A DNA stretch of 48,237 bases from Patescibacteria group bacterium. Its GTDB lineage: Bacteria > Patescibacteriota > Microgenomatia > UBA10105 > UBA927. The notes below the pieces were generated by a model that saw only the letters and a list, made by a program, of their open reading frames with translations, made no database searches and had not been told where the DNA came from. Of this stretch, positions 5,858 to 26,499 are shown piece by piece; within the stretch, counting starts at the first letter, position 1; each line of letters opens with the position of its first letter. Position numbers and translations under genes: made by a program. The DNA is taken from positions 1-48,237 of the forward strand of contig JBBTWJ010000011.1 in NCBI GenBank assembly GCA_038062895.1. The letters run 5' to 3'.

Positions 5858-6613
5858 ATGTCCGCTACATATAGCGTATCGCATTATCGGGAGATCGCAA
5901 AGGTAGATGCCCAGCATTTCTGGTTTCGCGCGCGCGGGGCTATGCTTACTGCGCTTATCAAACAGTTGGTACCAAAAGACAAACGGGGTTCGTTTTTAGA
6001 AGTTGGCTGTGGGACCGGCATCGTGTTGGGGCAATTACAGGCTTTGGGTTTTAGTGTCACAGGGTTGGACGTCAATCAAACGGCGTTGGATTGGGCGAAG
6101 CGCAAGTGTCCGGACGCGCATTTGATCCGTCAATCAATTTATTCCTTTACCAGTCCGCACCGGTTTGGGGCAGTCGGTGCATTTGATGTTCTGGAACACC
6201 AGACACAGGATGTCCTATTTTTGAAACGGTGTTGGGCATTGTTAGAAAAGGAAGGGACGCTCTTTCTTACGGTGCCTGCGGGTCAGTGGCTCTGGAGCAG
6301 GATTGATGTGATATCGGGGCATAAGCGGCGGTATGAGGTAGAGGATCTGCGGGAGAGGCTGCGTATCGCGGGGTTTCATGTGCAGTTTATGAATTATTGG
6401 AATGTTTTTCCTTTGCCATGGTATATGCTTTTTCGGATCTATGCCACCCATCAAAGGTTTGTTCCGACCGTGCCGATGTACCTCCATGTGCCCAATGGTT
6501 TTATCAACACCCTGTTGTATTATTTGTTACGGGTAGAACAATTGTTATTTTTTACACTCCCGTTTCCCCGGGGCGCGACACTCGTCGTATGCGCTAGGAA
6601 AGTGACGTCATGA
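5858..6613 (+). CDS. Class I SAM-dependent methyltransferase
   Basis: FLEVGCGTG motif I, FDVLEH, TVPA...GHKRRY; typical of glycan-cluster methyltransferases. Confidence 0.85.
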   Translation: MSATYSVSHYREIAKVDAQHFWFRARGAMLTALIKQLVPKDKRGSFLEVGCGTGIVLGQLQALGFSVTGLDVNQTALDWAKRKCPDAHLIRQSIYSFTSPHRFGAVGAFDVLEHQTQDVLFLKRCWALLEKEGTLFLTVPAGQWLWSRIDVISGHKRRYEVEDLRERLRIAGFHVQFMNYWNVFPLPWYMLFRIYATHQRFVPTVPMYLHVPNGFINTLLYYLLRVEQLLFFTLPFPRGATLVVCARKVTS

Positions 6614-8886
6614 ATAAGTTCTTTGGACTGGTAAAACCGTATATTCTTCCGGTTAGTATGTATGGTCTGGTCATTGCTCTTGTTTTTGGCCGGGCACTTA
6701 TCCCCGGAGGAGGCCCGCCTGCCGGCGAGGCAGGGGAGATGATCTGGGGCGATGATATCCACCGGGCGTACTATTTTTACCGGCAGTTTTTTAATAACTT
6801 TTTGGCTCAAGGCATATGGCCGTGGTGGAACCCCTATACCTTCGCGGGGGCTCCGTTTATGGCAAACCCGATCGTGAACATCTGGTACCCGCCGACGTGG
6901 TTCTTTGTCCTGTTACCCCTCAATTTCGCGTACTCCTGGCACATCGCGCTCCACTTATTGTGGGCGATGATGGGGATGTTCATCCTGCTTCGCAAAATTC
7001 CAAATTCCAAATTCCAAATTCCAAAATTGGGCGCATGGATCGGAGGCCTCATCTTTGGCCTGTCCGGCTTCTTCGTGGCCCGCATTTGGGCCGGGCACGT
7101 GGATGTCATCGCAGCAGCCAGTTGGATGCCGTGGGTGGTGTCGGCTTTTACACAATTAATGCACGCCCAGGTCGGCGCGTCGTCATTCTCACATCGTCAA
7201 GGTCCGCGCCTTTTATCATCCCATCACGACTTTTTTGCCAAGGCCGTGACGATGTTCGAAACGTCGCGCTTCCCCGCGCGCGAATGTGTTATTGCTGCCG
7301 TTGTTCTTGCTCTCCAGCTTTTTGCCGGGTATCAGACGATGGCCATGCTGACCCTGGAGGCGGTGGGGATCATGACGGTGATCATGCTCATCGCCGGACG
7401 TGCGCCTTTGCGGATGATTGTACAAACGATTGGACGAATCGCATTGAGCGTGGGTATTGCTATCGGGCTTTTTGCAATCGTCCTTCTGCCGCAACAGGAA
7501 TTATTCCGTCAATCGATCAGGACGTATGCCTTGCCGTATTCCTGGAATGCATACGGATCACTGACGTGGCAAAGTTTGGGGCAGTTCATCAACCCCTTTT
7601 TCTTTGGGGATCAGTTGACGTACCGCGGCCCACCGCCCAATTTTGCCGAGCACGCCTTCTTTGTGGGAAGAGGGACGATACTTCTATTGATGATTGCGTT
7701 GTCTGCATGGTTTATTCGTACTATCCGCTGGATTAATCCGACCAATCCAACCAATAGCCCAATCCGACCAATTAATGCATCAATGAAGCAATGGAGCAAT
7801 GGAAGAAGTTGGCTTGTAATCTTTTCGATGATTGCAGGTTTTGGCCTTTGGGTTTCCTTGGGTCCCAATGCGCCGATTGACCTTCAATATATTCTCTGGA
7901 ATATGATCCCGATGTACCATTTTCTCCGCATTCCGCCGCGACATCTTATCCTCGTCGCCTTCGGATTAAGCGCACTCATCGGTTTGTCCGTTGCCTATTT
8001 GAGCGCTTTTTTGTCATCCCGGCCCTTGAGCCGGGATCCAGTTCAAAAAATTTTATATGTTTTTCCCATATTGTTGGCAGTGTTGATTGCAACCGAGATG
8101 ATTCTTTATTCCCGTCATTTCATCGCGCTGAAGCCATTGCCGGAAACGCGTCATGACGCGGCGTTAATCAACATATTGAAACAAGATAAACAGCCGTATC
8201 GTGTGCTCACCAATTTCGGGGCGTGGGCGCCGCCACGGGATAGTTTCGATTTTGACGCGGGGATGCAGTATGGGGTTTTCAACGCGACCGGCTACGACAC
8301 GATGATCCTCAAGACGTACTATGCATTTATTGATGCGGCAAACGGCGCAAAAAGTCCCAGCATTCTCGAGCACGATGTGCAGATCCCGTACCTCAATGTG
8401 TTTTCGAAAGCCACGGATACCCTCAATATTAAATATATTCTTCACCCGCGGGCGTATGATCCGCTCTTCGGGAGTAAGGATCCCCGGTTCCGCCTTATTC
8501 GTGAAGATGTCGCGCGTGATTACCGGCTGTATGAAAATACCAGCGCGCTCCCGCGGTTTTATTTTGTCGATAATAAAGGAGGGAGGGTGGAAATTGAGAA
8601 ATATTCACCCAATGAAATCGTGCTGACGACGCAGTCGGCGGCAGGCGCAACACTCATGAGTTCGGAAGTATATTATCCCGGATGGGAAGGATTTATCGAT
8701 GGACAAAAGGTAGACATTATGAAGGTAAATAACACATTTCGAGCACTTTTTGTCCCTTCCGGCAATCACACGGTGATCTATCGCTATTCTCCCCGGATTT
8801 TTTGGATTGGTGGGGGCATCACGTTGTGCACGATGCTTGCAATCGCTTTTTGGCTGCGTAAACGCTCGTATCGAGTCAATCTATGA
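6610..8886 (+). CDS. YfhO-family membrane protein (paralog 1)
   Basis: PWWNPYTFAGAP near N-terminus; C-terminal SEVYYPGWEGFIDG...FRALFVPSGNHTV. Confidence 0.8.
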   Translation: MNKFFGLVKPYILPVSMYGLVIALVFGRALIPGGGPPAGEAGEMIWGDDIHRAYYFYRQFFNNFLAQGIWPWWNPYTFAGAPFMANPIVNIWYPPTWFFVLLPLNFAYSWHIALHLLWAMMGMFILLRKIPNSKFQIPKLGAWIGGLIFGLSGFFVARIWAGHVDVIAAASWMPWVVSAFTQLMHAQVGASSFSHRQGPRLLSSHHDFFAKAVTMFETSRFPARECVIAAVVLALQLFAGYQTMAMLTLEAVGIMTVIMLIAGRAPLRMIVQTIGRIALSVGIAIGLFAIVLLPQQELFRQSIRTYALPYSWNAYGSLTWQSLGQFINPFFFGDQLTYRGPPPNFAEHAFFVGRGTILLLMIALSAWFIRTIRWINPTNPTNSPIRPINASMKQWSNGRSWLVIFSMIAGFGLWVSLGPNAPIDLQYILWNMIPMYHFLRIPPRHLILVAFGLSALIGLSVAYLSAFLSSRPLSRDPVQKILYVFPILLAVLIATEMILYSRHFIALKPLPETRHDAALINILKQDKQPYRVLTNFGAWAPPRDSFDFDAGMQYGVFNATGYDTMILKTYYAFIDAANGAKSPSILEHDVQIPYLNVFSKATDTLNIKYILHPRAYDPLFGSKDPRFRLIREDVARDYRLYENTSALPRFYFVDNKGGRVEIEKYSPNEIVLTTQSAAGATLMSSEVYYPGWEGFIDGQKVDIMKVNNTFRALFVPSGNHTVIYRYSPRIFWIGGGITLCTMLAIAFWLRKRSYRVNL
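6714..6734. repeat. 21-bp GC-rich mini-insert (PPAGEAG), in-frame
   Basis: CCCGCCTGCCGGCGAGGCAGG; exactly 7 extra residues relative to YfhO paralogs 2 and 3; related sequence at 32331..32352. Confidence 0.7.
6995..7022. repeat. (AAATTCC)x4 tandem heptamer inside CDS
   Basis: Four perfect copies; reads KIPNSKFQIPK. Confidence 0.9.
7161..7282. repeat. About 120-bp imperfect stem-loop element, in-frame
   Basis: Arms ACATCGTCA (7191) and TGACGATGT (7247); homologous element at 15060..15183. Confidence 0.7.
7735..7772. repeat. AATCCGACC-type array inside CDS (INPTNPTNSPIRPI)
   Basis: Reverse complement of the ATTGGTCGG family. Confidence 0.8.
8012..8041. repeat. Family C half element, in-frame
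   Basis: TGTCATCCCGGCCCTTGAGCCGGGATCCAG. Confidence 0.8.
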
Positions 8887-9623
8887 AATCAAAAGGAAAA
8901 ATTGTATTTGTCACCGGATCTTCGCGGGGGATCGGGCGGGCGATTGCGTTGGAGTTTGCCCGTCTGGGATACACCGTCATCATTCATGCATCGCATGCGT
9001 CGCGCGAAGCGGTTGAGTCGCTGACCCGTGTCAAGCGGTTATCGTCAAAAAGTGATGCCGTGTATTTTGATGTCACCGATCCCCAGGCCGTTTCGAAAGG
9101 ATGTGCAGAGATTCTCAAACGGTTTGGCCACGTCGACATCCTCGTCAACAATGCAGGGATCGTCCGCAATGTGTTATTTGCCAAAATGACCACCGAGGAC
9201 TGGGATATCGTTATGAAGACCAATGTCTATGGCGCGTTTTATGTGACGAAACAAGTGCTTCCTTCCATGATTGCGGCGGGGTGGGGGAGGATTCTCTTTC
9301 TTTCTTCTATCAGTGGGGTACGCGGAGATTTTGGACAAACCAATTACAGTGCCTCTAAGGCAGCATTGATTGGTTTGACAAAGTCGCTTGCCAAAGAAGT
9401 CGCCCGCTTTGGCATCACGGTGAACGCAATAGCCCCCGGACTCGTGGAGACTGACATTCTCAAAGACGTCCCCGCCTCGTATATGGAAGCGATGATCAAA
9501 CAAATTCCTTTGGGCCGCAAAGCACGGCCGGAAGAAATTGCAAGCCTCGCTGTCTACTTGGCGAGCCAAGATGCCGGATATATTACCGGCGCTGCCATCC
9601 CCGTCAACGGCGGTTGGATGTGA
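8883..9623 (+). CDS. FabG-like short-chain dehydrogenase/reductase
   Basis: TGSSRGIG, VNNAG, NYSASKA catalytic YxxxK, C-terminal VNGG. Confidence 0.85.
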   Translation: MKSKGKIVFVTGSSRGIGRAIALEFARLGYTVIIHASHASREAVESLTRVKRLSSKSDAVYFDVTDPQAVSKGCAEILKRFGHVDILVNNAGIVRNVLFAKMTTEDWDIVMKTNVYGAFYVTKQVLPSMIAAGWGRILFLSSISGVRGDFGQTNYSASKAALIGLTKSLAKEVARFGITVNAIAPGLVETDILKDVPASYMEAMIKQIPLGRKARPEEIASLAVYLASQDAGYITGAAIPVNGGWM

Positions 9624-9640
9624 TGTGGTAAAATAGACAC

Positions 9641-9850
9641 ATGAGAAATTGGTCGGTGGATGAACAGTATCTTAAAAAATTCCCTCTCAAGTATAAGCTT
9701 TGGAAACTGATTCAGTCACTTTCGTATGGTCTGGACAATGAGAAGCTAGATAAAAGAGAGGTCGTCAAGCATTGGGATAGAATAAAAGATCAATTAGATC
9801 CCGGTCGCAGGGATTATATTCATTTTCTGTTATGGGGCAATCCGTTTTAA
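9641..9850 (+). CDS. Small putative antitoxin partner of the AbiEii-like toxin
   Basis: 69 aa, overlaps the downstream NTase start; extended -10 TGGTAAAAT 6 nt before ATG. Confidence 0.55.
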   Translation: MRNWSVDEQYLKKFPLKYKLWKLIQSLSYGLDNEKLDKREVVKHWDRIKDQLDPGRRDYIHFLLWGNPF

Positions 9851-10497
9851 GTGATTTTCAAAAAAAAGCTATAGCCATCTTTAGTAAAATCGTTTTAGCC
9901 AAAAAGTTTTATTTGGCCGGGGGGACAGCTTTGGCTGAGTTTTACCTTCATCATCGTAAGTCCGAAGATTTGGATTTTTTTACTGAAAAAGAGTTGAATA
10001 GGAGTGAACTGGAGCGTTTTGTAGATCTGATCGGGAAGAACATTCCTCTGAGGAAAGTAGAATTCCAACACGGTTTTGGCCTGTATACATATTTCTTTTA
10101 TCCCAAAGGGGACACGATCAAACACAAAATTGACTTTGGGCAATACCCATTTTCTCTTATTGAGAGACCAAAACTATTCGGCGGACTGCAAGTGGAGACA
10201 CTCTATGATATCGCCGTTGATAAAGCACATACCATATCCGTGCGTCCACGGCTGAGGGATTTTGTGGATTTATATTCTATATTTCAAGAACACGGCGAGT
10301 GGAATCTGAAAGGTCTCCTACGCAAGGCATTTGAGAAATTTGGGATCAAGGTTGATCCTCTGCAATTGGGAGAAAATCTATTTCAAGTTAAAAATCTTGA
10401 GGATATGCCGATTATGTTGAAGCGTTTTGACCGGGATAAGATGAAAGAATTTTTTCTCACGGAAGCGAGAAAACTGGAGAAGGGAATTTGGCTCTGA
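9832..10497 (+). CDS. Nucleotidyltransferase, AbiEii/AbiGii toxin family
   Basis: YLAGGTAL...HRKSEDLDFF and RDFVDLY motifs. Confidence 0.85.
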   Translation: MGQSVLSDFQKKAIAIFSKIVLAKKFYLAGGTALAEFYLHHRKSEDLDFFTEKELNRSELERFVDLIGKNIPLRKVEFQHGFGLYTYFFYPKGDTIKHKIDFGQYPFSLIERPKLFGGLQVETLYDIAVDKAHTISVRPRLRDFVDLYSIFQEHGEWNLKGLLRKAFEKFGIKVDPLQLGENLFQVKNLEDMPIMLKRFDRDKMKEFFLTEARKLEKGIWL

Positions 10498-10511
10498 AGC
10501 TTGGGGGAACA

Positions 10512-11234
10512 TTACGGGATATTGACCAAGTTTTGGATGACCGTCGCCGGTTTGGAATGGAATACATCAGCTATACGAAGATATACTAGCACTCCTATGA
10601 TCCAAAGTTTGATGAGACTCCCCACGGTATAGCCGGAGCGGCCGTACTTTCTGGATTCATGACGCACCGGAACGGATGCTATGTTTTTTGTGGCGCGCAG
10701 CACAAGACCTGGTAAATATACGAGCGATCCTTTGTACCGGCTGACTTTCCGGGCGACCACACTGGTCATGCAAAAGAAACTCGTCAAGGTGACTCCTGGG
10801 GGTTTGCCGAAAATTCCGGCCATGAGATTATGAAGCCTCGTTCCGATGCGGCGGACCGGATCCTCATTTGTTTCATATTGTCCATACACGACGTCCGCGT
10901 GTTGCGTATAGAGGGCGTTGAGAAGGACGTTTGCTTCCTCTGGTGGCGTTTGGAGATCATCATCCAGACACAAGACTACGTCTCCCTTTGCGAAGCGCAG
11001 TCCGGTGAGGAGTGCATTGTGTTGGCCGAAATTTCTTGTTAGTTGTATATATGTTATGTGTTTGTTTTTTGCAGCGAGTGTTCGGACCACGGCATCCGTG
11101 GTATCGGTTGACCCATCGTTGACACAGATGATCTCTATTTGACCAAAATTCCTCAACCTCATGATCCTCGTGGTCAGTTCGCGTACCGACGCGGCGGCGT
11201 TATAGAGGGGGATGATGAAGGAAACGAGTTTCAT
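10512..11234 (-). CDS. GT2 glycosyltransferase (ArnC/GtrB-like, polyprenyl-phosphate acceptor)
   Basis: IIPLYN, VNDGSTD, RNFGQHNA, DDDLQ.PPE. Confidence 0.85.
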   Translation of the reverse strand: MKLVSFIIPLYNAAASVRELTTRIMRLRNFGQIEIICVNDGSTDTTDAVVRTLAAKNKHITYIQLTRNFGQHNALLTGLRFAKGDVVLCLDDDLQTPPEEANVLLNALYTQHADVVYGQYETNEDPVRRIGTRLHNLMAGIFGKPPGVTLTSFFCMTSVVARKVSRYKGSLVYLPGLVLRATKNIASVPVRHESRKYGRSGYTVGSLIKLWIIGVLVYLRIADVFHSKPATVIQNLVNIP

Positions 11235-12019
11235 ATTACGTAATGCAAGACGACGTCCAATCTGGTCACTTTCGGATGGACGAGGTAGGTGTAGACGTTA
11301 AATACGGCCGTATTGTTGAGGGATATCTGTGTTTGTATGGTGGTGCGCCCCCGCTTTTTTAGCCACGAAAACAGTGAGAAATAGAGAAGTTTGCCCAAGC
11401 CTTTTCCTACGAGCTTGGGGTCAATGGCAGCAAGGCGTAAATTTGTTCCTTCCTGTTTATTTGCGATGATAAAAAATCCGGCAACAACCCCCTTGTCGTC
11501 AATAAATGCAAAGACCTCGTCGGATCCCTTCAAGCTCGACTCGACCCATCCTACGAACCGACTGTTGGACCCTCGTGAAGAAATATTTTTATCCAGATGA
11601 TAGCGGTCTGCGATGAAAGCTTTCCCAGCGATTTTCCGTAGTTCGGGGAGGTGTTTAGGGAGAGCGGGGACGAGCTGGTACTGCCGGTTTTGATGTTGTG
11701 GGAATGATTTTGGATTCCAATTGGTGAGGTCAAAAGATATTTCCACAGCTTCTTCGATTACATAGAAGCCCGAGGAAGTAAGGACATGTAAACGCTCTAC
11801 TTCAAGCGGAGAAGTTTTCAGAAACAGCAAATCGCCCTTGGTAAGGTTTAGATTTTTTTTAAGTTTTAATAGAAGGTTTTTGGCCGTCTGTTTCGATTTA
11901 AACGCAAATTCTTTGATCTCTATAGTGGTATTTTGTAAATACTTCGAGTCCCAGGGTATCAGGGCGTAGGTAAGGGAAGCGTTGCGATAAGTGATGGTCT
12001 GGGGAGTGACGTAAAACAT
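11231..12019 (-). CDS. GNAT acetyltransferase, WecD-like NDP-aminosugar acyltransferase
   Basis: IPWDS, RYHLD..I, GKGLGK acetyl-CoA motif; start moved to ATG 12019 because the longer N-terminus is REP-derived. Confidence 0.65.
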   Translation of the reverse strand: MFYVTPQTITYRNASLTYALIPWDSKYLQNTTIEIKEFAFKSKQTAKNLLLKLKKNLNLTKGDLLFLKTSPLEVERLHVLTSSGFYVIEEAVEISFDLTNWNPKSFPQHQNRQYQLVPALPKHLPELRKIAGKAFIADRYHLDKNISSRGSNSRFVGWVESSLKGSDEVFAFIDDKGVVAGFFIIANKQEGTNLRLAAIDPKLVGKGLGKLLYFSLFSWLKKRGRTTIQTQISLNNTAVFNVYTYLVHPKVTRLDVVLHYVI

Positions 12020-12081
12020 TGGACACAAGAATAGTGTGTTTTGTCTTTGTTGACAATAGCGAGGGATGAAACAGCAATTAT

Positions 12082-12110
12082 AGCTTCGCCAAGTCTGACT
12101 TGGCGAAGCT
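12082..12110. repeat. 29-bp REP variant A'; overlaps the stop codon of the GT2 gene 12109..12834
   Basis: AGCTTCGCCAAGT-CTG-ACTTGGCGAAGCT. Confidence 0.9.
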
Positions 12111-12834
12111 AGTTTTTCCCCAGCAGCATGAGGTTCACCCAGAGCCACAGGAATTCAGTGAGTGTGTGGATAAGCCGGGGGAGTGTGAAAAATTGCGATT
12201 GCCCATGGAGTCGGGGGAAATGGCTCACGGTCACTTCCGCAAATATTGCACCGCGGAGTTGGGCTTTTTTGACGAGACATACACAGACCGCGCCACTGGT
12301 GGTCGTGAGGCGGATCTGTTTGGCGATCTCTTTTCGGATGAGCCGGAAGTCGCAGTCCACATCAATGATGGGGAGCCAAAACATCCAGCGTGCGATAAAT
12401 TTATACATATTGCCCAAAACGACACGCAGTAATGGATCGTGACGTTCCTCCTTGATGCCGTTGACGAAGCTCACGTCACCTCCCATGAGGGTAAGAAGTC
12501 TGGGAAGTTGCCGGATATCATACTGCCCATCCCCGTCGGTGTAGGCGATCAGGTCGCCTTTGGCGGCAGTAAATCCGGACTGTAATACTGCGCCATACCC
12601 TTTATTTGTAGCATGGAAGATGAGTTTGAGCTGGGGGAATGTCGTTTTTTTCAATTGGTGCAGGAGTTCCCGTGATCCATCTGTTGATCCATCGTCGATG
12701 ACGATCACTTCCGGATGGTTCGTGATTTTTTTAAGTGTCACATAGGCATCGTGGACCAGGTTTTTGATCGTCTCTCGGTCGTTGTAGCAGGGGAAGAAGA
12801 TGCTGATAGAGGGATGGAGCTTGGTGGTCGGCAT
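12109..12834 (-). CDS. GT2 glycosyltransferase (DPM-synthase-like)
   Basis: FFPCYND, IDDGSTD, NKGYG, DGDGQYD, DVDCDFRL. Confidence 0.85.
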   Translation of the reverse strand: MPTTKLHPSISIFFPCYNDRETIKNLVHDAYVTLKKITNHPEVIVIDDGSTDGSRELLHQLKKTTFPQLKLIFHATNKGYGAVLQSGFTAAKGDLIAYTDGDGQYDIRQLPRLLTLMGGDVSFVNGIKEERHDPLLRVVLGNMYKFIARWMFWLPIIDVDCDFRLIRKEIAKQIRLTTTSGAVCVCLVKKAQLRGAIFAEVTVSHFPRLHGQSQFFTLPRLIHTLTEFLWLWVNLMLLGKN

Positions 12835-12837
12835 AGA

Positions 12838-14040
12838 TTATGCTATGAAATATCCCCGGGTAAAAAGGATGATGCAGAAAAAAAGCATGGATACGGTTAC
12901 GAAGAAATACAGCGTTTTCCTGAATTTCGTTTGCTCTGAAAGAGCCATGGCAAGGGTAAAAAATAACGGGTATAGATGAAGTCCATAGCGGGGCATTCCC
13001 TGAAACGTGCCGGTGAAGGATGGGATAAGGATAGATATAGTTAAAAAAATCCAGTAGGAAGCCCTGATTTTTCCGATGGACCAGATTATTGCCCAAGTGT
13101 AAAGAGCGACTGAGCTAAGTTCTATCATAGCCACCCAATAGGTGAGTGTGGCAGGGGGATGAAGGAAAAAAATTTTCAGATACCGCCATACTACTTGTAT
13201 CGGGAACGTGACTTTTTCCTGTCCCCAGACGCTCATAGTCGTAAAAAGTGTCTGCCAACTGCCAAATTGTCCATGGATCCACATCAAATAGCCAAGCATG
13301 GTCAATGGGATGAAAAATGCCGCCCAGACGCGATGCTTATAAAGCAGATGCAAACGGAAATTATTTCGGAGAGAGGTAAGGATCGGTTTTATTTGCCATT
13401 TATTGTCTGTGGGTAACGCATATTCCACGAGAAGAAATGGAAACAGCGCCAGACCATTTAGTCGCGTCAATGTGGCAGCGGCACCGGCAATCCCTGCCCA
13501 TACAAAATTTTTTGTCCGTCCCAAGTACAGCGTGAGAGTAGTGAGGAAGAAAAATAACGCATCGTTATAGGTTGCTCCATAAGAATAGGATGTTGGGTAG
13601 GTGAGTACGACGGCGATAATGAGGGGAAAGAGGGAAAGTTTTTTGTCGTGTGCTAAAAGTTTGACGACCACAATGAGGGCAGCAGAAAGACTTGCGAGGG
13701 AGACGATTTGAGCGGCCAAAACGAAGGGTAGGCTCCACCTTAGGGCGATGAACCGGACGATGACCGGATAGAGGGGGAAAAACGGTTGTTGCCCGGATAA
13801 ATATCCGTCGCGGGCAATCGCAAGGTAAAAAAAGCCGTCAAAGTTGCCCCAAATACTCACGAGGTACGGGAGATAAAATCCGAAATTTTTATACTGCGGA
13901 TCACGCCAAATAGTGTACGCCAATTGGAGAGGGAGTATTTGTGTGGCGAATGTCGCGAAAATAAGTGTGATTACCTTCCAGAGAAGTACTCCGATTATCA
14001 ACGTACGCCCAACGGTACGCCATGTGCTGTATAGTATCAT
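12838..14040 (-). CDS. PIG-V-like mannosyltransferase (GT-C)
   Basis: WGNFDGFFYLAIARDGY...FFPLYP, TRLNG, GMPRY; start at 14040 or 14058. Confidence 0.75.
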   Translation of the reverse strand: MILYSTWRTVGRTLIIGVLLWKVITLIFATFATQILPLQLAYTIWRDPQYKNFGFYLPYLVSIWGNFDGFFYLAIARDGYLSGQQPFFPLYPVIVRFIALRWSLPFVLAAQIVSLASLSAALIVVVKLLAHDKKLSLFPLIIAVVLTYPTSYSYGATYNDALFFFLTTLTLYLGRTKNFVWAGIAGAAATLTRLNGLALFPFLLVEYALPTDNKWQIKPILTSLRNNFRLHLLYKHRVWAAFFIPLTMLGYLMWIHGQFGSWQTLFTTMSVWGQEKVTFPIQVVWRYLKIFFLHPPATLTYWVAMIELSSVALYTWAIIWSIGKIRASYWIFLTISILIPSFTGTFQGMPRYGLHLYPLFFTLAMALSEQTKFRKTLYFFVTVSMLFFCIILFTRGYFIA

Positions 14041-14048
14041 TACTGGGT

Positions 14049-14477
14049 ATGGTATCACGCCGTTTTTTTAGAAGAAAGAGCATGATCAATCCTGACGTAA
14101 TATGGATTACATCAGTTGCGGGGTTATTGGTGATCATGGGTACTATGATTTCACGGTTGCCCAGTCCGAGAGATTTTACCCCACCGTCTATCGGCATCTC
14201 ATATCCGGATGAGGGAGCAACTGTTCAGGGGAATGTCGATATCGGGGTGCATGCGACTGATTCTAGCGGTATAGACCGTGTGGAAATTACCCTCAATTGT
14301 ACGCAGCCAATTGCAAATTTTACGCATCCCCCATACACGATCGTCTGGGATACGACACCATTGGCCGTCAAACGCTACCAACTCTGCGTCACGGCATGGG
14401 ATGCGGCGGGATTGAGTTCGCGCGTCACACGGGACGTATTCGTGACGTTGCAAAAGCCAATCATGGCGATACAATGA
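14049..14477 (+). CDS. Membrane-anchored Ig-like (Big) domain protein
   Basis: One TM, then DFTPP..ISYP.EG..V.G, ATD.SGI.RVE, PY...WDT, AWDAAG; start uncertain. Confidence 0.7.
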   Translation: MVSRRFFRRKSMINPDVIWITSVAGLLVIMGTMISRLPSPRDFTPPSIGISYPDEGATVQGNVDIGVHATDSSGIDRVEITLNCTQPIANFTHPPYTIVWDTTPLAVKRYQLCVTAWDAAGLSSRVTRDVFVTLQKPIMAIQ

Positions 14478-14483
14478 GAGGCG

Positions 14484-16901
14484 ATGAGAATACTCAAATA
14501 TCCATTCGTTGTCCCTGCGTTTTTTTATCTCGCCGTTGTGTTCTCCGTCTTTTGGCCTATCCTGTGGCCACCGGCAGGGACTCTCGTTTTTGGCGATGAT
14601 ATCCATCGGTCCTATCACTTTTTTCGGCAGCTGTTTGCTGATTCAATTTCTCGGGGCGAATTTCCCTGGTGGAATCCGTATCTGTTTTCCGGTGAACCGC
14701 TGATTGCCAACCCATCCTTGGCGTTTTGGTATCCCGTTAATTGGCTCTTTGCCCTCATCCCGTATCGCTTCGTCTATTCCTGGATCATACCCCTTCACAT
14801 TTTCTGGGCGATGATGGGAATGTACACCCTCGTACAGGGTATGACAAACAGCAAACAACAAAGAGCAAAGAGCAAACAGTTTTCTCTTATCCGTTCTCTG
14901 TTCTCTGTTATCTGTTATCCTTTTTCCTTAGGTCCCTGGCTTGCCGGTTTCATCTTTGGTCTTTCCGGTTTTTTCATGGGCCGGGTATGGGAAGGGCACA
15001 TTGAGCTTATTCTTTCGGCTTCCTGGATGCCGTGGGTGGTAGCGGCATTTGGGCAGTTGGCGCGCGCTGAGGTCGGCATGCCGTCGTTTTCGCATCATCA
15101 AGGTCCGGACCACTCATTAGCCCATCGAAGTTTTTTTGCCAAGGCCGTGATGATGCTCAAAACGTCACGCCTTCCCGCACGCGAGATTGTACTGACGGCA
15201 ATCGTATTCGCCATGCAGATACTCGCCGGCTACCAGACGATGGCGCTTCTTACATTGGAGGCAGTGTTCATTATTGCGTTGTTTCAAAGCATTGCGATGA
15301 AGAGTTTTCAACCATTACTCCGAACTGGTCTTGCTGGTCTTACTGGTCTTGCTCTTGCCGCTATTCAGATTCTCCCCGGACAGGAATTTTTTCGGTCAAG
15401 CATCCGGACATACGCACTCCCGTATACCTGGGCGGTGTTTGGTTCGTATACGATAGAGAATCTCAAACAGCTCTTTGATCCATTTTTCTTCGGATTCCCA
15501 TGGAGCTATAAAGGCCCCAGTCCAAACTTCGGAGAAATGGCCGCCTACATCGGAAAAGGGGGATTGCTCTTGGCCTTCATTTCGATCTTTGTATTTGTTA
15601 TTCAGTTATTTCAAAAGGTATTCAAACGAAGTAACCCAGTAACGAAATCACAAGTCAGTAAATATTCGTACTTACTAAGTAACGAAGTAACGAAATTGCT
15701 AACTAACCAGAGCCAAATAGTAGTATTTGGCGGTGCGATGCTCTGTGTTGCCATCTTTGGTCTGTGGGTATCGTTTGGGTGGAACGCGCCAATTGACCTC
15801 AATAAAATGCTTTGGGATATCGTTCCTATGTACAAATACCTCCGCATCCCGTCCCGTCACCTTATTCTCTTTGTCTTCGGCATGAGCGCCCTCGCCGGCT
15901 TGGGATTCCATCAGATTATCAGATACCTTAGCTTCGCAAGGCCTGGCCTTGCGAAGCTGGCTGTTTTGATCATTTCATTGGTTATTATTGTTGATATGCT
16001 CTGGTTTGCAAAAGTATTTGTTCTATTGCGTCCCGACCCGGTGACGCGGCATAATCAGGAATTAGTCTCCTATCTTCAAAAAAATGTAGGTCTTGCACGA
16101 ATCCTCCCCAACTTTAACGTCGGCATGGGGACGCGTGATGCTCTGGATTTTGACGCCGCGATGGGGTACCGGATGTATAGCGCCTCGGGTTATGATCCTG
16201 CCATCCTTCGCAATTATTATGAATTTGCCGCGGCCGTGGCAGGGATAGAAAACCCCGATGTCCAGCAAACCGACGTGCAGATTCCGTATCTCTTGCCTGC
16301 TTCCCGATACACGGACTTTCTCAACGTCAAATATATGTTTGTTCCGTCCTGGTTTGACTCGGTGGCCGGATCACACCCCAAATACAAACTCGTCATGGAG
16401 GAAAACAAAAAAGATTACTTCCGGCTGTATGAAAATACTCAAGTATTACCTAGATTTTTTCTTGTACCCACACTCGTAGGTTTGCCCAATAGGGATGCAA
16501 TCGCCCGCGCAATACGGATGGGGGAGCACGATCCGGGGAAGGTCATCCTCGGGCAAACGAAAGATATTCCGGCTGGATTTACCGCTGATTGCGGCACGCA
16601 AAAACTTCCGGCGGTTACTGTCATCTCCTATTCAATGAATAAAATAATTTTGGAAACGAATGCACCCTGCAATGCATTTTTAGCAACGAGTGAAGTCATG
16701 TATCCGGGGTGGCAAGCCACGATTGATGGTAAAGGATCAAACTTCATTGAAGGCAACCTGGCCTTCCGCACGATCCCAGTGCCCTCGGGCCGCCACACCA
16801 TCATCATGACCTTCCGGCCAACAGTATTTATTGTGGGTTTCTTCGTGAGCATCGCGGCCCTTCTTGGCAGTTTGATTTGGATGAAAAAAACGGTATCCTA
16901 G
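14484..16901 (+). CDS. YfhO-family membrane protein (paralog 2)
   Basis: PWWNPYLFSGEP; SEVMYPGWQATIDG...FRTIPVPSGRH. Confidence 0.8.
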   Translation: MRILKYPFVVPAFFYLAVVFSVFWPILWPPAGTLVFGDDIHRSYHFFRQLFADSISRGEFPWWNPYLFSGEPLIANPSLAFWYPVNWLFALIPYRFVYSWIIPLHIFWAMMGMYTLVQGMTNSKQQRAKSKQFSLIRSLFSVICYPFSLGPWLAGFIFGLSGFFMGRVWEGHIELILSASWMPWVVAAFGQLARAEVGMPSFSHHQGPDHSLAHRSFFAKAVMMLKTSRLPAREIVLTAIVFAMQILAGYQTMALLTLEAVFIIALFQSIAMKSFQPLLRTGLAGLTGLALAAIQILPGQEFFRSSIRTYALPYTWAVFGSYTIENLKQLFDPFFFGFPWSYKGPSPNFGEMAAYIGKGGLLLAFISIFVFVIQLFQKVFKRSNPVTKSQVSKYSYLLSNEVTKLLTNQSQIVVFGGAMLCVAIFGLWVSFGWNAPIDLNKMLWDIVPMYKYLRIPSRHLILFVFGMSALAGLGFHQIIRYLSFARPGLAKLAVLIISLVIIVDMLWFAKVFVLLRPDPVTRHNQELVSYLQKNVGLARILPNFNVGMGTRDALDFDAAMGYRMYSASGYDPAILRNYYEFAAAVAGIENPDVQQTDVQIPYLLPASRYTDFLNVKYMFVPSWFDSVAGSHPKYKLVMEENKKDYFRLYENTQVLPRFFLVPTLVGLPNRDAIARAIRMGEHDPGKVILGQTKDIPAGFTADCGTQKLPAVTVISYSMNKIILETNAPCNAFLATSEVMYPGWQATIDGKGSNFIEGNLAFRTIPVPSGRHTIIMTFRPTVFIVGFFVSIAALLGSLIWMKKTVS
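14844..14920. repeat. Two opposed degenerate heptamer arrays inside CDS
   Basis: CAAACAG/CAAAGAG units followed by CTGTTCT/CTGTTAT units. Confidence 0.75.
15060..15183. repeat. About 120-bp stem-loop element, in-frame (homolog of 7161..7282)
   Basis: Arms GCATCATCA (15092) and TGATGATGC (15148). Confidence 0.7.
15625..15708. repeat. Degenerate octamer array (AGTAACGA) inside CDS
   Basis: AACGAAGT AACCCAGT AACGAAAT...AAGTAACGAAGTAACGAA. Confidence 0.7.
15930..15958. repeat. Family A REP, in-frame (SFARPGLAKL)
   Basis: Identical to 4889..4917 but read in another frame. Confidence 0.95.
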
Positions 16902-16912
16902 CGTGGGAAGGA

Positions 16913-17431
16913 ATGAATATGTTTGCTGTTTCCTCATTACATACTTATCGATCAACCAAGATGGTGCCTTTGGTAAAAGCGGCATCATTCGTGAGAAGTC
17001 TCCGTAAGCAAGGCAAGACCGTCGGGCTTTGCCATGGGGGGTTTGACCTTCTCCATCCCGGTCACGTCAAACATTTCGAGTCCGCTAAAAAGCATTGTGA
17101 TGTGCTGGTGGTATCCGTGACGAGCGACCGGTTTGTGGAGGGCCGCAAGGGCGCAGGCCGGCCCATATATCCGGATCAACTCCGGGCGTACATGATCGCA
17201 AGCCTGGCAGTGGTGGACTACGTCGTCATTACGGATTTTAAACTTGGCGTGGACGTCATTCATGCGCTCCAACCGTCTCTCTATATCAAAGGTTCAGACT
17301 TTGTCGGGAAACAGACGCCTGGCATCACCGCCGAGCGGGAAGCGATTCAATCGGTCGGCGGCACGATGGTCTATACCAAAGACCCCAAACTTTCGACGAG
17401 CGCAATCATCGAGCACATCCGGAAATCATGA
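16913..17431 (+). CDS. Cytidylyl/adenylyltransferase, RfaE(HldE) domain II-like
   Basis: GGFDLLHPGH (HxGH), KG.GRPI, YIKGSDF, STS. Confidence 0.85.
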   Translation: MNMFAVSSLHTYRSTKMVPLVKAASFVRSLRKQGKTVGLCHGGFDLLHPGHVKHFESAKKHCDVLVVSVTSDRFVEGRKGAGRPIYPDQLRAYMIASLAVVDYVVITDFKLGVDVIHALQPSLYIKGSDFVGKQTPGITAEREAIQSVGGTMVYTKDPKLSTSAIIEHIRKS

Positions 17432-19650
17432 AAAAGTTTCTTCCATTTTTCCTGTATGCCGTTCTCATTGTTGTCGTATTTTGGGGTGTGCTGGTGCCCC
17501 CGGAAGGAAAAATACTTTTTGGTCCGGATATCACGCGGTACCATTATTTTCAGAGGCAGTTTTTAGGATCAGTACTTCGTGAGGGGAGTGTGCCGTGGTG
17601 GAATCCCTACACCATGATGGGAGTTCCGTACCTCGAGCATCCGCAAATTCCTTTTTGGTACCTCCCCAATCTTCTGTTTGTGTTGTTGCCGGTGAATGTC
17701 GCAATGTCCTGGTATATCGCTCTCCACCTATTTATCGCGATGGTGGGAATGTACACCCTGCTTCGCAGGGAATTATCCAATAATCCAATAATCAAATTAT
17801 CCAATGAAAAACAAGAACCCATTCACTTATTTACTCATTCACCCATCACGCAACTCTCCGCTTGGGCTGCGGGCGTCGCTTTTGGACTGTCTGCGTACTT
17901 TGTGGCCCGGATTCCTGCCGGGCACATCGATATCATTGCCGCTTCCTCGTGGATGCCAATCGTCATTATTGCATTTTTCCACCTCATGCGCGCCCAGGTC
18001 TCCGCCAGCCGGCGGATTCCCGCGCGCTTCATCGCATTGGCCGGAATTGCATTTGCCATTCAACTTCTCGCCGGACATCCGATGGTTGCGGTGTTTACGC
18101 TGGAGGCGGTTTTTATTATCACCGTGATTCACGCTATTCCTGCTTTCGCTTCTGCTTCTACTCTTACCACTGGCCTTGCTCGTGTTGCTCGAGTTGCTTT
18201 TACTGCTGGTCTTGCTATTCTTACTGGTCTTGCTTTAGCTGCTATTCAAATCCTCCCCAACGCCCAATTTATTGCCCACAGCATCCGGACGTTTCCGTTT
18301 CCGGACAGCTGGGCGCAGCTTGGCACGCCGACGATTGGACACATGCTAGAATTTCTCGATCCATTTTATTTCTATTCGCGACTCCCAGACTCGGGATTTG
18401 GATTTGAGCACGTGGGCTATATCGGAAAAATACCGTTATTATTTGCCATGATAGCCATCGTGTCCTGGATTGTAGCCAAGAGGAAACGGTGGGAAGTTCC
18501 TGCGTTTGTTATGGTTTCATTCTTTGGTATCTGGATGTGGTTGGGTAATAATGCGCCGTTTGATCTTTTTTCTTGGGTGCGTTCTTGGATGCCTCTCTAC
18601 AGTCAGATCCGTATTCCTGCCCGTCACATCATACTATTTGTGTTTTCGGCAAGCGTGCTGTTCGGATTAGGACTCAACGTTATTCAGTCAAAAGCAATTC
18701 AGATAATCGCGACCGTTTTATTGCTTGTTGAGCTTGTTCCTTTTGCCCGCCATCACCTTTCTTTGGTGCCTACGCCAGACAAGGCCCAGGACAGCGAACT
18801 GACTTCCACTCTTACGAGTGATCACAGTCTCTATCGTTTTCTTCCTGATTTTTATCACGGCGATCCCATGCGGGATGTGTTGGAATTTAACGCGCCGATT
18901 ATCCATAAAATCCAATCCGTGTCCGGCTATGATACGCCGCCCATCCGGAATATGTATGAGTTTTTGTTGAGTGTAAACGATTACCGGCTTTCTGATGTAT
19001 TACCATACACCGAGTCCATCCCGCCGTTTCGTGCCATCACCTCACCGTACCTTAACTTCCTCAACGTTAAATACATTCTTGTACCGATAGTCCAAGATCC
19101 GATAAAAAGAATCCAGACAAAGCAGTTTTCGTTGATTAAAGAAAGTGCAACGCGAGGATGGAGGGTATATGAAAATAAAAACGTAATGTCTCGTTTTTTT
19201 ATCGCAACGAACATGCAAAAAGAATCGAATAGGGGAAGGGTGTTATCAACAATCAAGCAGGGGAGCGTGGATCCAAAAACAACTATTGTAGTGGATGAAA
19301 ATTCTGTAGATACGTCAGGGTTTTTTCCGGATTGTCCGGAGGGAACGACTGGCAATATTTTGGTTGAGTCCTACGGATATGGAACGATTCGTCTAACCGC
19401 CAACACGCTTTGCAACGCGTTTCTCGCCACAAGCGAAGTCATGTATCCCGGCTGGACGGCCGCGATTGATGGGAAATCAGTGCCGGTTTTTGAAAGCAAC
19501 GCAGCCTTCCGGACGGTGTATCTGCCCCGAGGCACCCACACCATCGTCTTTTCCTACCGCCCGACAATCGTACTTTGGGGAGCCATGATAAGCATTTTAA
19601 CCATTTTTGTAATATTTCTAGCTTCGCAAGGCCTGGCCTTGCGAAGCTAA
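17428..19650 (+). CDS. YfhO-family membrane protein (paralog 3)
   Basis: PWWNPY..GVP; SEVMYPGWTAAIDG...FRTVYLPRGTH; C-terminus encoded by a REP. Confidence 0.8.
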   Translation: MKKFLPFFLYAVLIVVVFWGVLVPPEGKILFGPDITRYHYFQRQFLGSVLREGSVPWWNPYTMMGVPYLEHPQIPFWYLPNLLFVLLPVNVAMSWYIALHLFIAMVGMYTLLRRELSNNPIIKLSNEKQEPIHLFTHSPITQLSAWAAGVAFGLSAYFVARIPAGHIDIIAASSWMPIVIIAFFHLMRAQVSASRRIPARFIALAGIAFAIQLLAGHPMVAVFTLEAVFIITVIHAIPAFASASTLTTGLARVARVAFTAGLAILTGLALAAIQILPNAQFIAHSIRTFPFPDSWAQLGTPTIGHMLEFLDPFYFYSRLPDSGFGFEHVGYIGKIPLLFAMIAIVSWIVAKRKRWEVPAFVMVSFFGIWMWLGNNAPFDLFSWVRSWMPLYSQIRIPARHIILFVFSASVLFGLGLNVIQSKAIQIIATVLLLVELVPFARHHLSLVPTPDKAQDSELTSTLTSDHSLYRFLPDFYHGDPMRDVLEFNAPIIHKIQSVSGYDTPPIRNMYEFLLSVNDYRLSDVLPYTESIPPFRAITSPYLNFLNVKYILVPIVQDPIKRIQTKQFSLIKESATRGWRVYENKNVMSRFFIATNMQKESNRGRVLSTIKQGSVDPKTTIVVDENSVDTSGFFPDCPEGTTGNILVESYGYGTIRLTANTLCNAFLATSEVMYPGWTAAIDGKSVPVFESNAAFRTVYLPRGTHTIVFSYRPTIVLWGAMISILTIFVIFLASQGLALRS
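17771..17855. repeat. Degenerate octamer arrays inside CDS
   Basis: AATTATCC/AATAATCC units, then ATTCACTT/ATTTACTC/ATTCACCC units. Confidence 0.7.
19620..19648. repeat. Family A REP, downstream flank of RAYT-1; encodes the end of YfhO paralog 3
   Basis: AGCTTCGCAAGGCCTGGCCTTGCGAAGCT followed by AA, forming the TAA stop. Confidence 0.95.
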
Positions 19651-19668: not shown

Positions 19669-20385
19669 TTATTCCACATCGATCGTTGAGTCGTTGAGGA
19701 TATATGCAGCATTTTCATTTTGGTCAAATCCTTCAACGAAAGACTCGTAGGATGTCGGTCCTTTTTTTCCAAATTGACTGAGTATTTCATTTGGATTTAC
19801 CCATTTAGTCTGTCGCAGAGCCAAATATTCCCTGTATGAACTATATTCCCAGCTTCGCAAGGCCTGGCCTTGCGAAGCTAAGTCTTTTGGTTTTATAAGA
19901 CTGATCGGGTTTCTGTGAATGTAGCGCGTGAGGTAGAGTAGCTGCTCATCAGAATTAATCAATACCGCTTTATAGACTCCTTGAAACAGCGGGCCGACTC
20001 GTTTATATTTTTTGTTGAAATACATGGTATAGCGAGTGCCCAAGGAATTGAGAAAACGATCAATAATGTCTTCATCTTGTTGGTGAACGAGAAAATGAAA
20101 ATGATTGGGCATGAGGCAGTATGCGAGAAGCGATAGACTTTCATGAAAGTTATTCAGTCTGAGAAGTTTTATGGCTTTATCTTTGGCACGCCATGGTGAA
20201 GTCTCGTCCATGATGGTTGCCCGAAGCGCAATTTCATCTTTTGGTTCTAAATAGGTTTTGAGATAGGAGAGGAATACACCATAATCTTGTCGATCTCGAA
20301 AAATCTTTTGTTTATCAACGCCTCTGTTGTACAGGTGATACCGGGCGTCTGATGCATATTGTTTCGTTCGATTTTTCGCTGGCAT
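19669..20385 (-). CDS. REP-associated tyrosine transposase-like HUH nuclease (Y1_Tnp), RAYT-1
   Basis: YHLYNRG, AYCLMPNHFH (HUH), GPLFQG.YK, YIHRNP catalytic Tyr, YSSY; flanked by palindromes. Confidence 0.9.
   Translation of the reverse strand: MPAKNRTKQYASDARYHLYNRGVDKQKIFRDRQDYGVFLSYLKTYLEPKDEIALRATIMDETSPWRAKDKAIKLLRLNNFHESLSLLAYCLMPNHFHFLVHQQDEDIIDRFLNSLGTRYTMYFNKKYKRVGPLFQGVYKAVLINSDEQLLYLTRYIHRNPISLIKPKDLASQGQALRSWEYSSYREYLALRQTKWVNPNEILSQFGKKGPTSYESFVEGFDQNENAAYILNDSTIDVE
19851..19879. repeat. Family A REP inside the RAYT-1 CDS (LASQGQALRS)
   Basis: Perfect 29-bp copy between RNP and YSSY. Confidence 0.95.
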
Positions 20386-20410: not shown

Positions 20411-20439
20411 AGCTTCGCAAGGCCAGGCCTTGCGAAGCT
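20411..20439. repeat. Family A REP, upstream flank of RAYT-1 (opposite orientation)
   Basis: AGCTTCGCAAGGC-CAG-GCCTTGCGAAGCT. Confidence 0.95.
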
Positions 20440-25803: not shown

Positions 25804-26499
25804 ATGCCGGCAAAGAATTCTGTTAAGGAATTTGTATCTGATTCGTATTACCATATATATAACCGCGGGGTGGAGAAACGAACGATTTTTCAGGATCCCC
25901 AGGATTATGCCGTATTTCTTTCTTATTTAAAAACGTATTTACTCCCCAAAGATGAAATTGCGCTGCGATCAGTTATTACCGATCAAAAACGTTCGTATAA
26001 AGAAAAGGATCTTGCCCTAAAAGCGCTAAAACTCAATAATTTTTCTGATTCTTTAAGACTGATTTCTTACTGTCTGATGCCGAATCATTTCCATTTTCTC
26101 GTGAAACAAACAGAAGCCATGACGATTGATCGGTTTATGCAGTCATTTTGTACCCGCTACACACTGTATTTTAATCGTAAATATCGGAGAGTTGGGGGTT
26201 TGTTTCAAGGATTGTATAAAGCGGTTCGGATTACGACAGATGAACAGCTTCTTCATGTATCTCGATATATCCACCGTAATCCTATAACTTTAGCTTCGCA
26301 AGGTACTACCTTGCGAAGCTATACGTATTCATCATACTTGAAATTTCTTAGCGATATTCATGTAGCATGGGTACATCCGGAGGATATTTTAGAATATTTT
26401 AATAAATCCGGATACAAAGGATACCAAAAGTTTGTTGAAGGTCCGGCAGAAGAGGAAAATCTGCGGTTAATTCTTACGATGACCCTTGATGATGAATAA
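25804..26499 (+). CDS. REP-associated tyrosine transposase-like HUH nuclease (Y1_Tnp), RAYT-2
   Basis: YHIYNRG, YCLMPNHFH, GGLFQG.YK, YIHRNP, YSSY; clear paralog of RAYT-1. Confidence 0.9.
   Translation: MPAKNSVKEFVSDSYYHIYNRGVEKRTIFQDPQDYAVFLSYLKTYLLPKDEIALRSVITDQKRSYKEKDLALKALKLNNFSDSLRLISYCLMPNHFHFLVKQTEAMTIDRFMQSFCTRYTLYFNRKYRRVGGLFQGLYKAVRITTDEQLLHVSRYIHRNPITLASQGTTLRSYTYSSYLKFLSDIHVAWVHPEDILEYFNKSGYKGYQKFVEGPAEEENLRLILTMTLDDE
26292..26320. repeat. Family B REP inside the RAYT-2 CDS (LASQGTTLRS)
   Basis: Perfect AGCTTCGCAAGGTACTACCTTGCGAAGCT between RNP and YSSY. Confidence 0.95.

Follow-up and report, generated by a model that had tools for sequence, protein, structure and literature searches.

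Three paralogous genes for a YfhO-type membrane glycosyltransferase, which we call P1, P2 and P3, carry many families of small repeats at the same loops, and it is probable that such repeats enter or arise widely in the genome and persist only in tolerant cytoplasmic linkers. The genes lie in the window analyzed here, which is the whole 48,237-bp contig C11 of the 1.23-Mb genome, in 27 contigs, of an uncultured groundwater bacterium (G000; C-numbers denote contigs and other G-numbers related genomes). A first-pass annotation of the window had reported inserts at shared loops and offered two accounts, that insertion by many element families is widespread but only tolerant loops retain the copies, or that the loops act as interchangeable variable cassettes. 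The shared positions were borne out by a codon-level map and by alignments of three, 25 and 38 sequences, in all of which the insert positions are homologous. The evidence favors the first account, and the loops show where the protein tolerates extra sequence rather than a new functional cassette.

P1, P2 and P3 are old paralogs of a GT-C glycosyltransferase

P1 (6610..8886, + strand, 758 aa), P2 (14484..16901, + strand, 805 aa) and P3 (17428..19650, + strand, 740 aa) matched the Pfam family YfhO (PF09586) at 39.7, 37.0 and 33.4 bits, above the gathering cut-off of 28.5, with the match confined to the C-terminal ~80 residues of each protein (profile positions ~752-835). The same family is precomputed for 37 of the 38 listed homologs, and four carry the source name 'YfhO family protein'. 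Database sources in the homolog listing name the YfhO homologs Candidatus Gottesmanbacteria, and the genome is of the Gottesmanbacteria type within the candidate phyla radiation (CPR). In Bacillus, YfhO has a role in teichoic-acid glycosylation.

Identity among the paralogs ranges from 40 to 46%, with P1 at 46% to P2 and 40% to P3. Five related genomes, three from the genus and two more from the family, have orthologs of all three, and other relatives are single-copy. Each paralog formed its own clade, at 100/100, in a tree of 634 conserved columns. P1, P2 and P3 are old paralogs of a YfhO-type GT-C membrane glycosyltransferase.

Different repeats occupy the same loops

Tandem arrays were called with Tandem Repeats Finder (TRF), which detected them in loop L1, after the M.GM..L helix, of all three paralogs, as the first-pass annotation had described. 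In P1 the array is 4.4 units of AAATTCC with 100% matches (6995..7025, + strand), read as KIPNSKFQIPK; similar arrays are on C3 and C9, and its borders are end points of many metagenome contigs. P2 has two abutting heptamer arrays (14845..14919, + strand), CAAACAG x5 (14845-14879) and then GTTATCT x5.9 (14879-14919). These had been described as opposed; both arrays are present, but they are only loosely complementary, and as a hairpin they folded no better than shuffles (z -0.47). In P3, TRF and alignment placed 4.4 units of AATAATCC (17771-17805) followed by two to three degenerate CATTCAC-like units (17771..17850 overall, + strand). Of 41 related genomes, 23 contain this 8-mer array, and the number of matches per genome reaches 29.

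Loop L2, between AGGTC and TTCCC, holds a hairpin element of ~100-115 bp in P1 (7161..7279, + strand) and an element of the same family in P2 (15062..15180, + strand), so that both genes are 81 bp (27 codons) longer here and contain a 17-nt inverted repeat; the P1 copy is read in frame as RAQVG...TSRFPAR. P3 has at this place the ends of the element, GCGCGCCCAGGTC ... TTCCCGCGCGC, around the 16-nt palindrome TCCGCCAGCCGGCGGA (18001-18016, within 17988..18027, + strand), and copies of the palindrome lie on C24, C3, C5 and C22. The inserts of the three paralogs had been called unrelated, and many families are indeed involved, but at L2 the family is common to P1 and P2 and its ends recur in P3. 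A BLAST search found no further copy of the L2 element in G000 outside P1 and P2. Matches occur in 5 of 41 related genomes. G015 has three of the further copies and G001 one, all within unrelated genes and all read in the same frame; the hosts include a GT4 glycosyltransferase gene and a 706-aa open reading frame (ORF) of G015. Seven aligned copies have 25 base pairs in common, nine of them with compensatory changes on both sides. The inverted repeat was found where a stem-loop had been proposed, but its fold energy is marginal (z -1.7 and -0.6), so the case for a stem-loop rests on covariation. Because the copies in other genomes lie in unrelated genes and their base pairs are compensated, the L2 element is best read as a structured dispersed element, and an origin as ancestral protein sequence was ruled out on the same grounds.

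At loop L3, arrays were found in P1 and P2 and none in P3, by TRF and the 3-way alignment, in agreement with the earlier description. P1 has AATCCGACC x4.3 (7735-7772) followed by CAATGGAG x2.9 (7735..7803 overall, + strand), from a 9-mer family with 10 arrays genome-wide, and P2 has AAGTAACG x2.2 (15677..15694, + strand) within a 37-residue loop, from the AACGAAGT family with 8 arrays genome-wide. The description of loop L4 was equally accurate. P1 carries a single hairpin there, GTCATCCCGGC..GCCGGGATCCAG (8013..8041, + strand; z -4.3), which is one arm of a larger multi-hairpin element, has six genome copies at <=5 mismatches and matches C3 and C9; the P1 ortholog of G003 has the full three-hairpin form at this place, and the partner hairpin, earlier labeled family C, has 37 copies in the genome. 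P2 carries a 29-bp repetitive extragenic palindromic (REP) element, AGCTTCGCAAGGCCnGGCCTTGCGAAGCT (15930..15958, + strand; z -6.5), a perfect 14+1+14 palindrome with 20 copies, read as SFARPGLAKL. Alignment and a palindrome scan found no insert at L4 of P3.

Three further inserts, absent from the list in the first-pass annotation, each lie in a single paralog. An 18-nt mini-palindrome, GCCTGCC..GGCAGG (6717..6734, + strand), makes a P1-only insert of seven residues just after the first transmembrane (TM) helix, TM1, and has nine genome copies at <=2 mismatches, all within the ORF calls of this analysis. In P3, loop L2b, after TM6, has 12 extra residues with weak 9/18-mer arrays (18139..18236, + strand; TRF and alignment). 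No dispersed family was shown for this stretch, and the P3 orthologs of G002 and G014 have multi-hairpin elements at L2b. The P3 tail ends in a REP palindrome (19620..19648, + strand) that forms the last nine codons (ASQGLALRS), with the stop codon (19648-19650) overlapping the last REP base; P3 of G002 likewise ends in a REP palindrome, in another reading frame.

The repeat families are dispersed in genes of many kinds

The genome contains 808 TRF arrays, compared with 157-181 in three shuffles, and 410 compared with 23-27 at a score of at least 40. Periods of 7, 8 and 9 dominate (139, 121 and 133 arrays). Tandem arrays are typically about 31-38 nt long, and 31 of 69 heptamer arrays measure 31-33 nt. 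A set of 174 arrays with periods of 7-10 and a score of at least 40 comprised 99 within ORFs, 23 partly within ORFs and 52 intergenic, with ORF status taken from the crude ORF calls of this analysis. A BLAST comparison of each loop with the genome found further copies of the 7-, 8- and 9-mer arrays, the P1 hairpin and the P2 palindrome. By these matches, every insert family in P1-P3 appears to be dispersed in this genome or its relatives.

The most repeat-laden long ORFs include those for an arginyl-tRNA synthetase (ArgRS), a penicillin-binding protein, an amine oxidase, and Wzy-like, DUF2298 and PMT_2 proteins. The ArgRS gene (L056, G000:C16:22159-24420) contains four in-frame heptamer arrays and two GGATCCCCGC..GCGGGGATGAC hairpins, and this housekeeping enzyme is colonized as heavily as the YfhO genes. 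Array density was mildly higher in ORFs with at least six TM helices than in soluble ORFs (1.27 and 0.82 arrays per 10 kb), a difference from which we draw no claim.

The inserts are derived and turn over between lineages

Basal single-copy relatives and G011 have 8 residues at L2, 13 at L2b, 1-2 at L3 and 9 at L4, and across 25 relatives and 34 database homologs the affected loops in their basal state are short and rich in lysine and arginine (K/R). The longer versions differ between orthologs of one genus, and each of them is tandem-repeat or hairpin DNA; equally long loops of non-repetitive sequence were not seen in the orthologs. The L2 element, for example, is missing from both P1 and P2 in G001 and G002, and from P2 in G011 and G014. 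Because the loops are short in basal relatives and differ between orthologs of one genus, the P1-P3 inserts are derived and not ancestral. The number of different loop lengths among the 34 homologs (range in residues) was 15 (10-45) for L1, 12 (3-43) for L2, 8 (5-72) for L2b, 13 (0-37) for L3 and 8 (9-48) for L4, and the outer turns E2, E3 and E5 each had a single length in 34 of 34.

Strain variation was assessed by comparing the window with contigs of four other runs (X5, X8, X9 and X10). No variant in length or unit number was found in them, although rare variants would escape detection in contigs. Two samples of a second study yielded contigs with 0 differences across L1-L3 of P2 and L2-L3 of P1. 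Contigs break at the repeats, as expected of dispersed sequences, and the insertions listed at 7748-7754 (depth 48-90) derive from further members of the 9-mer family. In run X8, a contig of low depth connects P1 (6803) with P2 (14661) at codons that roughly correspond. It omits 7,857 bp and has 13 other nucleotides at the joint, and its shorter arm measures only 21 nucleotides; it may be a fused gene in a relative or an assembly artefact. A second P1-P2 joint runs from 7776 to 15928, and both joints have short sides or unknown content.

The variable loops are predicted to lie on the cytoplasmic side

An AlphaFold model of P2 built from the 38-sequence alignment was confident, with a predicted local distance difference test score (pLDDT) of 89 and a predicted template modeling score (pTM) of 0.91. 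Foldseek returned 25 matches at E <= 0.001, and every listed chain at that level was a GT-C enzyme, including AftD (E 1.2e-7), STT3, AglB, PglB, AftA, ArnT and DPY19; a family sequence profile gave no match to solved structures. The predicted layout has 12 TM helices with both ends inside. It places L1, L2, L2b, L3, L4 and the tail inside, and the GDD loop and the C-terminal domain outside. An FGDDIHR motif, the candidate acidic catalytic motif, follows TM1, in the first outer loop by this layout, and at least 90% of the 38 aligned sequences retain its D39.

Sidedness was assigned by counting helices from an N-terminus inside, and the K+R fraction is 0.12-0.45 in inner segments versus 0.00-0.11 in outer segments, consistent with the positive-inside rule. 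On this model, the five variable loops, together with the C-terminal tail, would all face the cytoplasm. Three of the four insert segments of P2 were modeled with low confidence (pLDDT 49-61 at residues 121-150 in L1, 51-77 at residues 191-230 and 57-72 at residues 381-410), and the fourth, the L4 palindrome, was modeled as the tips of two long helices.

Proposed wide entry with selective persistence, and its alternatives

We propose that small repeats of a selfish or self-propagating kind abound in the genome, namely 7-9-bp arrays of about 32-38 nt, a 29-bp REP palindrome tied to genes resembling REP-associated tyrosine transposases (RAYTs), mini-palindromes and the ~100-bp hairpin element, and that these would land or arise in genes of all kinds. 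An insert would persist only if it kept the frame, contained no stop codon and left the protein unharmed. In P1-P3 the tolerant places would be the five short, K/R-rich cytoplasmic TM linkers and the cytoplasmic tail, far from the active site on the opposite face, and different families would therefore accumulate at the same loops in every paralog and lineage. Because the repeats are not specific to these genes, wide entry with persistence where a length change is harmless is the simplest account, and it is the one that we think probable. The dispersed families, the diversity of their hosts, the restriction of variation to cytoplasmic linkers and the invariance of the outer turns all speak for it, and from this pattern we infer the survivorship filter itself. 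Site preference, or short-tract copying between paralogs, may account for a lesser part of the pattern.

Several observations weigh against this account. Arrays are not enriched in coding sequence (57% lie wholly in ORFs, compared with a coding fraction of 0.907, or 91%), and three more distant YfhO paralogs on C3 contain no array at all. The mini-palindrome at 6717-6734 is the sole insert on the predicted outer side, and the sidedness of all the others follows from helix parity in a predicted model and from K/R content. Shared orthologous inserts are 82% identical at L2 and 87% at L3 (the P1 L3 arrays and their G003 ortholog), and all 29 bases of the P2 L4 REP are unchanged in P2 of G002 and of G003, whereas identity is 77% for the core and 56% for third codon positions. 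This likeness above that of the host genes points to DNA-level constraint or copy-correction, which a purely neutral reading would not predict. At L1, a 56-nt run is identical between P3 of G000 and P1 of G002, and 30 nt of it recur in P2 of G001, although core nucleotide identity among these genes is 49% for the first pair and 49-55% overall, and the genes belong to different orthology groups, each at 100/100. The L2 element likewise recurs at one and the same loop: P1, P2 and P0030, a distant homolog, all carry it there, and P3 has its ends. Since the same 8-mer unit is found in L1 of G000 P3, G002 P1 and G001 P2, survivorship alone is insufficient.

These likenesses bring in a second explanation, that mobilizing enzymes prefer the loop sequences or that pieces are copied between paralogs or genomes. 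It would also fit the second half of the L1 unit that P1 and P2 of G002 have in common, the REP identity across three species, and the CTTCGC(A/G) immediately 5' of the L1 arrays in these genes. However, this common junction may simply be part of the normal coding sequence, as CTGCTTCGC doubles as the code for a conserved Leu-Leu-Arg at the helix end. A GC hairpin whose loop reads CTTCG stands ahead of the arrays at L1, but a general module of hairpin plus array was rejected, because a hairpin of at least 5 bp lay within 30 nt of 45 of 157 arrays compared with 29-51 in 20 random controls. Similarity ends at the element borders, beyond which identity in the genes around L1 and L2 falls to background. 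Conversion of whole genes or long tracts between paralogs is excluded because flanks outside the units are at that background level, and the conserved-core tree shows no homogenization of paralogs. With the repeat families also present in many unrelated genes, site-directed insertion or short-tract copying is a possible but unlikely explanation of the pattern as a whole. We hold with similar reserve the idea that cytoplasmic linkers are preferred landing pads for repeat-mobilizing machinery (RAYT or others), or that copy-correction against members elsewhere in the genome holds the repeats uniform; if either were true, selection would act on the DNA or RNA form of repeats inside coding genes.

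The second account offered at first pass, adaptive cassettes or switches that are selected to vary, for instance in partner contacts, or that turn genes on and off by slippage of 7- or 8-bp units, seems very improbable. Loops do turn over fast between species of one genus, gain or loss of 7- and 8-bp units would shift the frame, and 6 of the 99 in-ORF arrays fall in the 6.9 kb of P1-P3, a density roughly tenfold that of the average ORF. Against this, the arrays have only ~4.4 units and the heptamer arrays a characteristic length, the contigs covering P2 L1-L3 and P1 L2-L3 gave no length variant within the limits stated above, and the loops are predicted to be cytoplasmic and, for three of the four P2 segments, poorly ordered. 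The same repeats also sit in unrelated genes, including housekeeping enzymes such as ArgRS, and P1-P3 rank only 10th, 25th and 45th of 158 long ORFs in repeat content. Least credible by far is that the loops are ordinary ancestral sequence that merely looks repetitive, or an alignment artefact. The lack of another L2 copy in G000 had at first suggested a shared ancestral segment in P1 and P2, but the in-frame copies in unrelated genes of G015 and G001, the nine compensated pairs, the absence of the element from G001 and G002 orthologs and the short loops of basal relatives all argue otherwise.

Relation to known systems

The kind of event proposed here is known from Rickettsia palindromic elements (RPEs) and from intragenic REPs. 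RPEs were reportedly described by Ogata et al. in 2000 and 2002. They are described as small palindromic mobile repeats that are found in frame in many unrelated genes and are translated (PMC10969869), and the P1-P3 inserts resemble them in behavior only, being in frame, translated and present in many genes. The inserts differ from RPEs in phylum (CPR/Patescibacteria) and in sequence. About ten families occur in the three paralogs, including tandem 7-9-mer arrays, whereas RPEs are not tandem arrays, and all but one of the inserts are in predicted cytoplasmic TM linkers of a GT-C enzyme.

For REPs, Di Nocera, De Gregorio and Rocco (2013; PMC3733652, available sections) suggested that flexible linkers or loops are where neutral intragenic inserts reside; for intragenic REPs, those sections do not describe insertion that recurs at homologous paralog loops of the kind found here. 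The same sections define two REP super-families by a GTAG or CGTC tag and present REPtrons, which the present system resembles in its 29-bp GC-rich palindrome of ~20 copies, some of them inside ORFs and flanking tyrosine-transposase genes. Unlike REPtrons, each of the three RAYT-like genes described below contains an in-frame REP at the same internal position. Mrazek and co-workers have reportedly found long simple sequence repeats (SSRs) of 5-11 nt, with an excess of heptanucleotides, in some prokaryotes. A heptamer excess is mentioned in PMC4692102. The excess of 7-9-bp tandem repeats here is like these long SSRs, and differs from them in the characteristic length of ~31-38 nt, in the dispersed families and in the more than half of arrays that lie in ORFs in frame.

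As YfhO/GT-C enzymes, P1-P3 are typical in their PF09586 match, GT-C fold, GDD motif in what is predicted to be the first outer loop, large C-terminal domain on the outer side and GT2 neighbors, and unusual in that only the C-terminal ~80 residues match Pfam and in having no more than 12 TM helices. In the C3 paralogs, L4 is followed by two additional helices.

We found no account of in-frame repeats in CPR/Patescibacteria genes in the open-access library searched. What is new in the present case is that all predicted cytoplasmic linkers are hit and no short outer turn, that about ten families take part, and that the repeats are conserved above the synonymous level. The pattern amounts to a natural map of insertion tolerance in a GT-C glycosyltransferase, with five cytoplasmic linkers and the tail permissive and three short outer turns not, which may be useful for engineering tags into GT-C enzymes. 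In ultra-small CPR genomes, a sizeable share of the variation in protein length between species comes from translated selfish repeats, and such repeats affect gene calling, homology searches and alignments. P3 may be an example: its database copy is 554 aa long and 100% identical over 75% of the query, and the public annotation apparently begins the gene ~186 codons too far downstream, close to L1 and L2 with their repeats, leaving the protein short by ~186 residues. Repeats that are more conserved than synonymous sites also raise a testable question of how they are maintained within genes.

REP palindromes and RAYT-like genes

The REP palindrome has 20 genome copies at <=4 mismatches, of which the crude ORF calls of this analysis put 12 in ORFs, two at gene edges and six between genes. 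The 12 in-ORF copies use two reading frames, SFARPGLAKL six times and ASQGLALRS six times; the third frame (LRKAWPCEA) is stop-free and was never used, for which the chance is (2/3)^12, or ~0.008. A RAYT-like tyrosine transposase gene (19669..20385, - strand) adjoins P3, with REP copies flanking it at 19620-19648 and 20411-20439 and a third in frame inside it at 19851-19879. Its product has an HUH-like NHFHF motif and a YIHRNP motif, which we take to be diagnostic of RAYTs. It matched Pfam Y1_Tnp above the cut-off (E 1.4e-7), and its best NCBIfam match, REP_Tyr_transpos at 41 bits, was below the cut-off of 80; a sequence search against solved structures gave only a chance-level match.

REP copies flank three RAYT-like ORFs in all, 19669-20385 (- strand), 25804-26496 (+ strand) and G000:C7:39619-40371. 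Each contains its own REP variant in frame just after YIHRNP (ASQG..LRS.(E/T)YSSY), and the variant co-varies with the gene, the GGTACTACC core being found only at 25721 and 26292. Neither GTAG nor CGTC was found at the REP ends, which read (C/T)TAGCTTCGC..., and the ~100-bp L2 element holds CGTC within its stems. Judged by sequence features, the REP copies and RAYT-like genes probably represent the known REP/RAYT arrangement in a form that has neither tag.

Neighboring genes and other features

Genes for GT2 glycosyltransferases, methyltransferases, short-chain dehydrogenases/reductases (SDR) and cytidylyltransferases lie between and around P1-P3, as assigned by Pfam. An ORF for an AbiEii-type nucleotidyltransferase toxin (9832-10497; Pfam E 1.1e-19) lies between the P1 and P2 gene groups. 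Within the paralogs, a 44-residue segment of the outer C-terminal domain is kept in P2 (16467-16625) and P3 (19207-19368) and missing from P1 (8569-8598), from P1 orthologs and from G016; this indel of P1 relative to P2 and P3 is non-repeat DNA. Elsewhere in the genome, a single open frame of 14,710 codons (G000:C10:81-44210) nearly fills the 47.6-kb contig C10.

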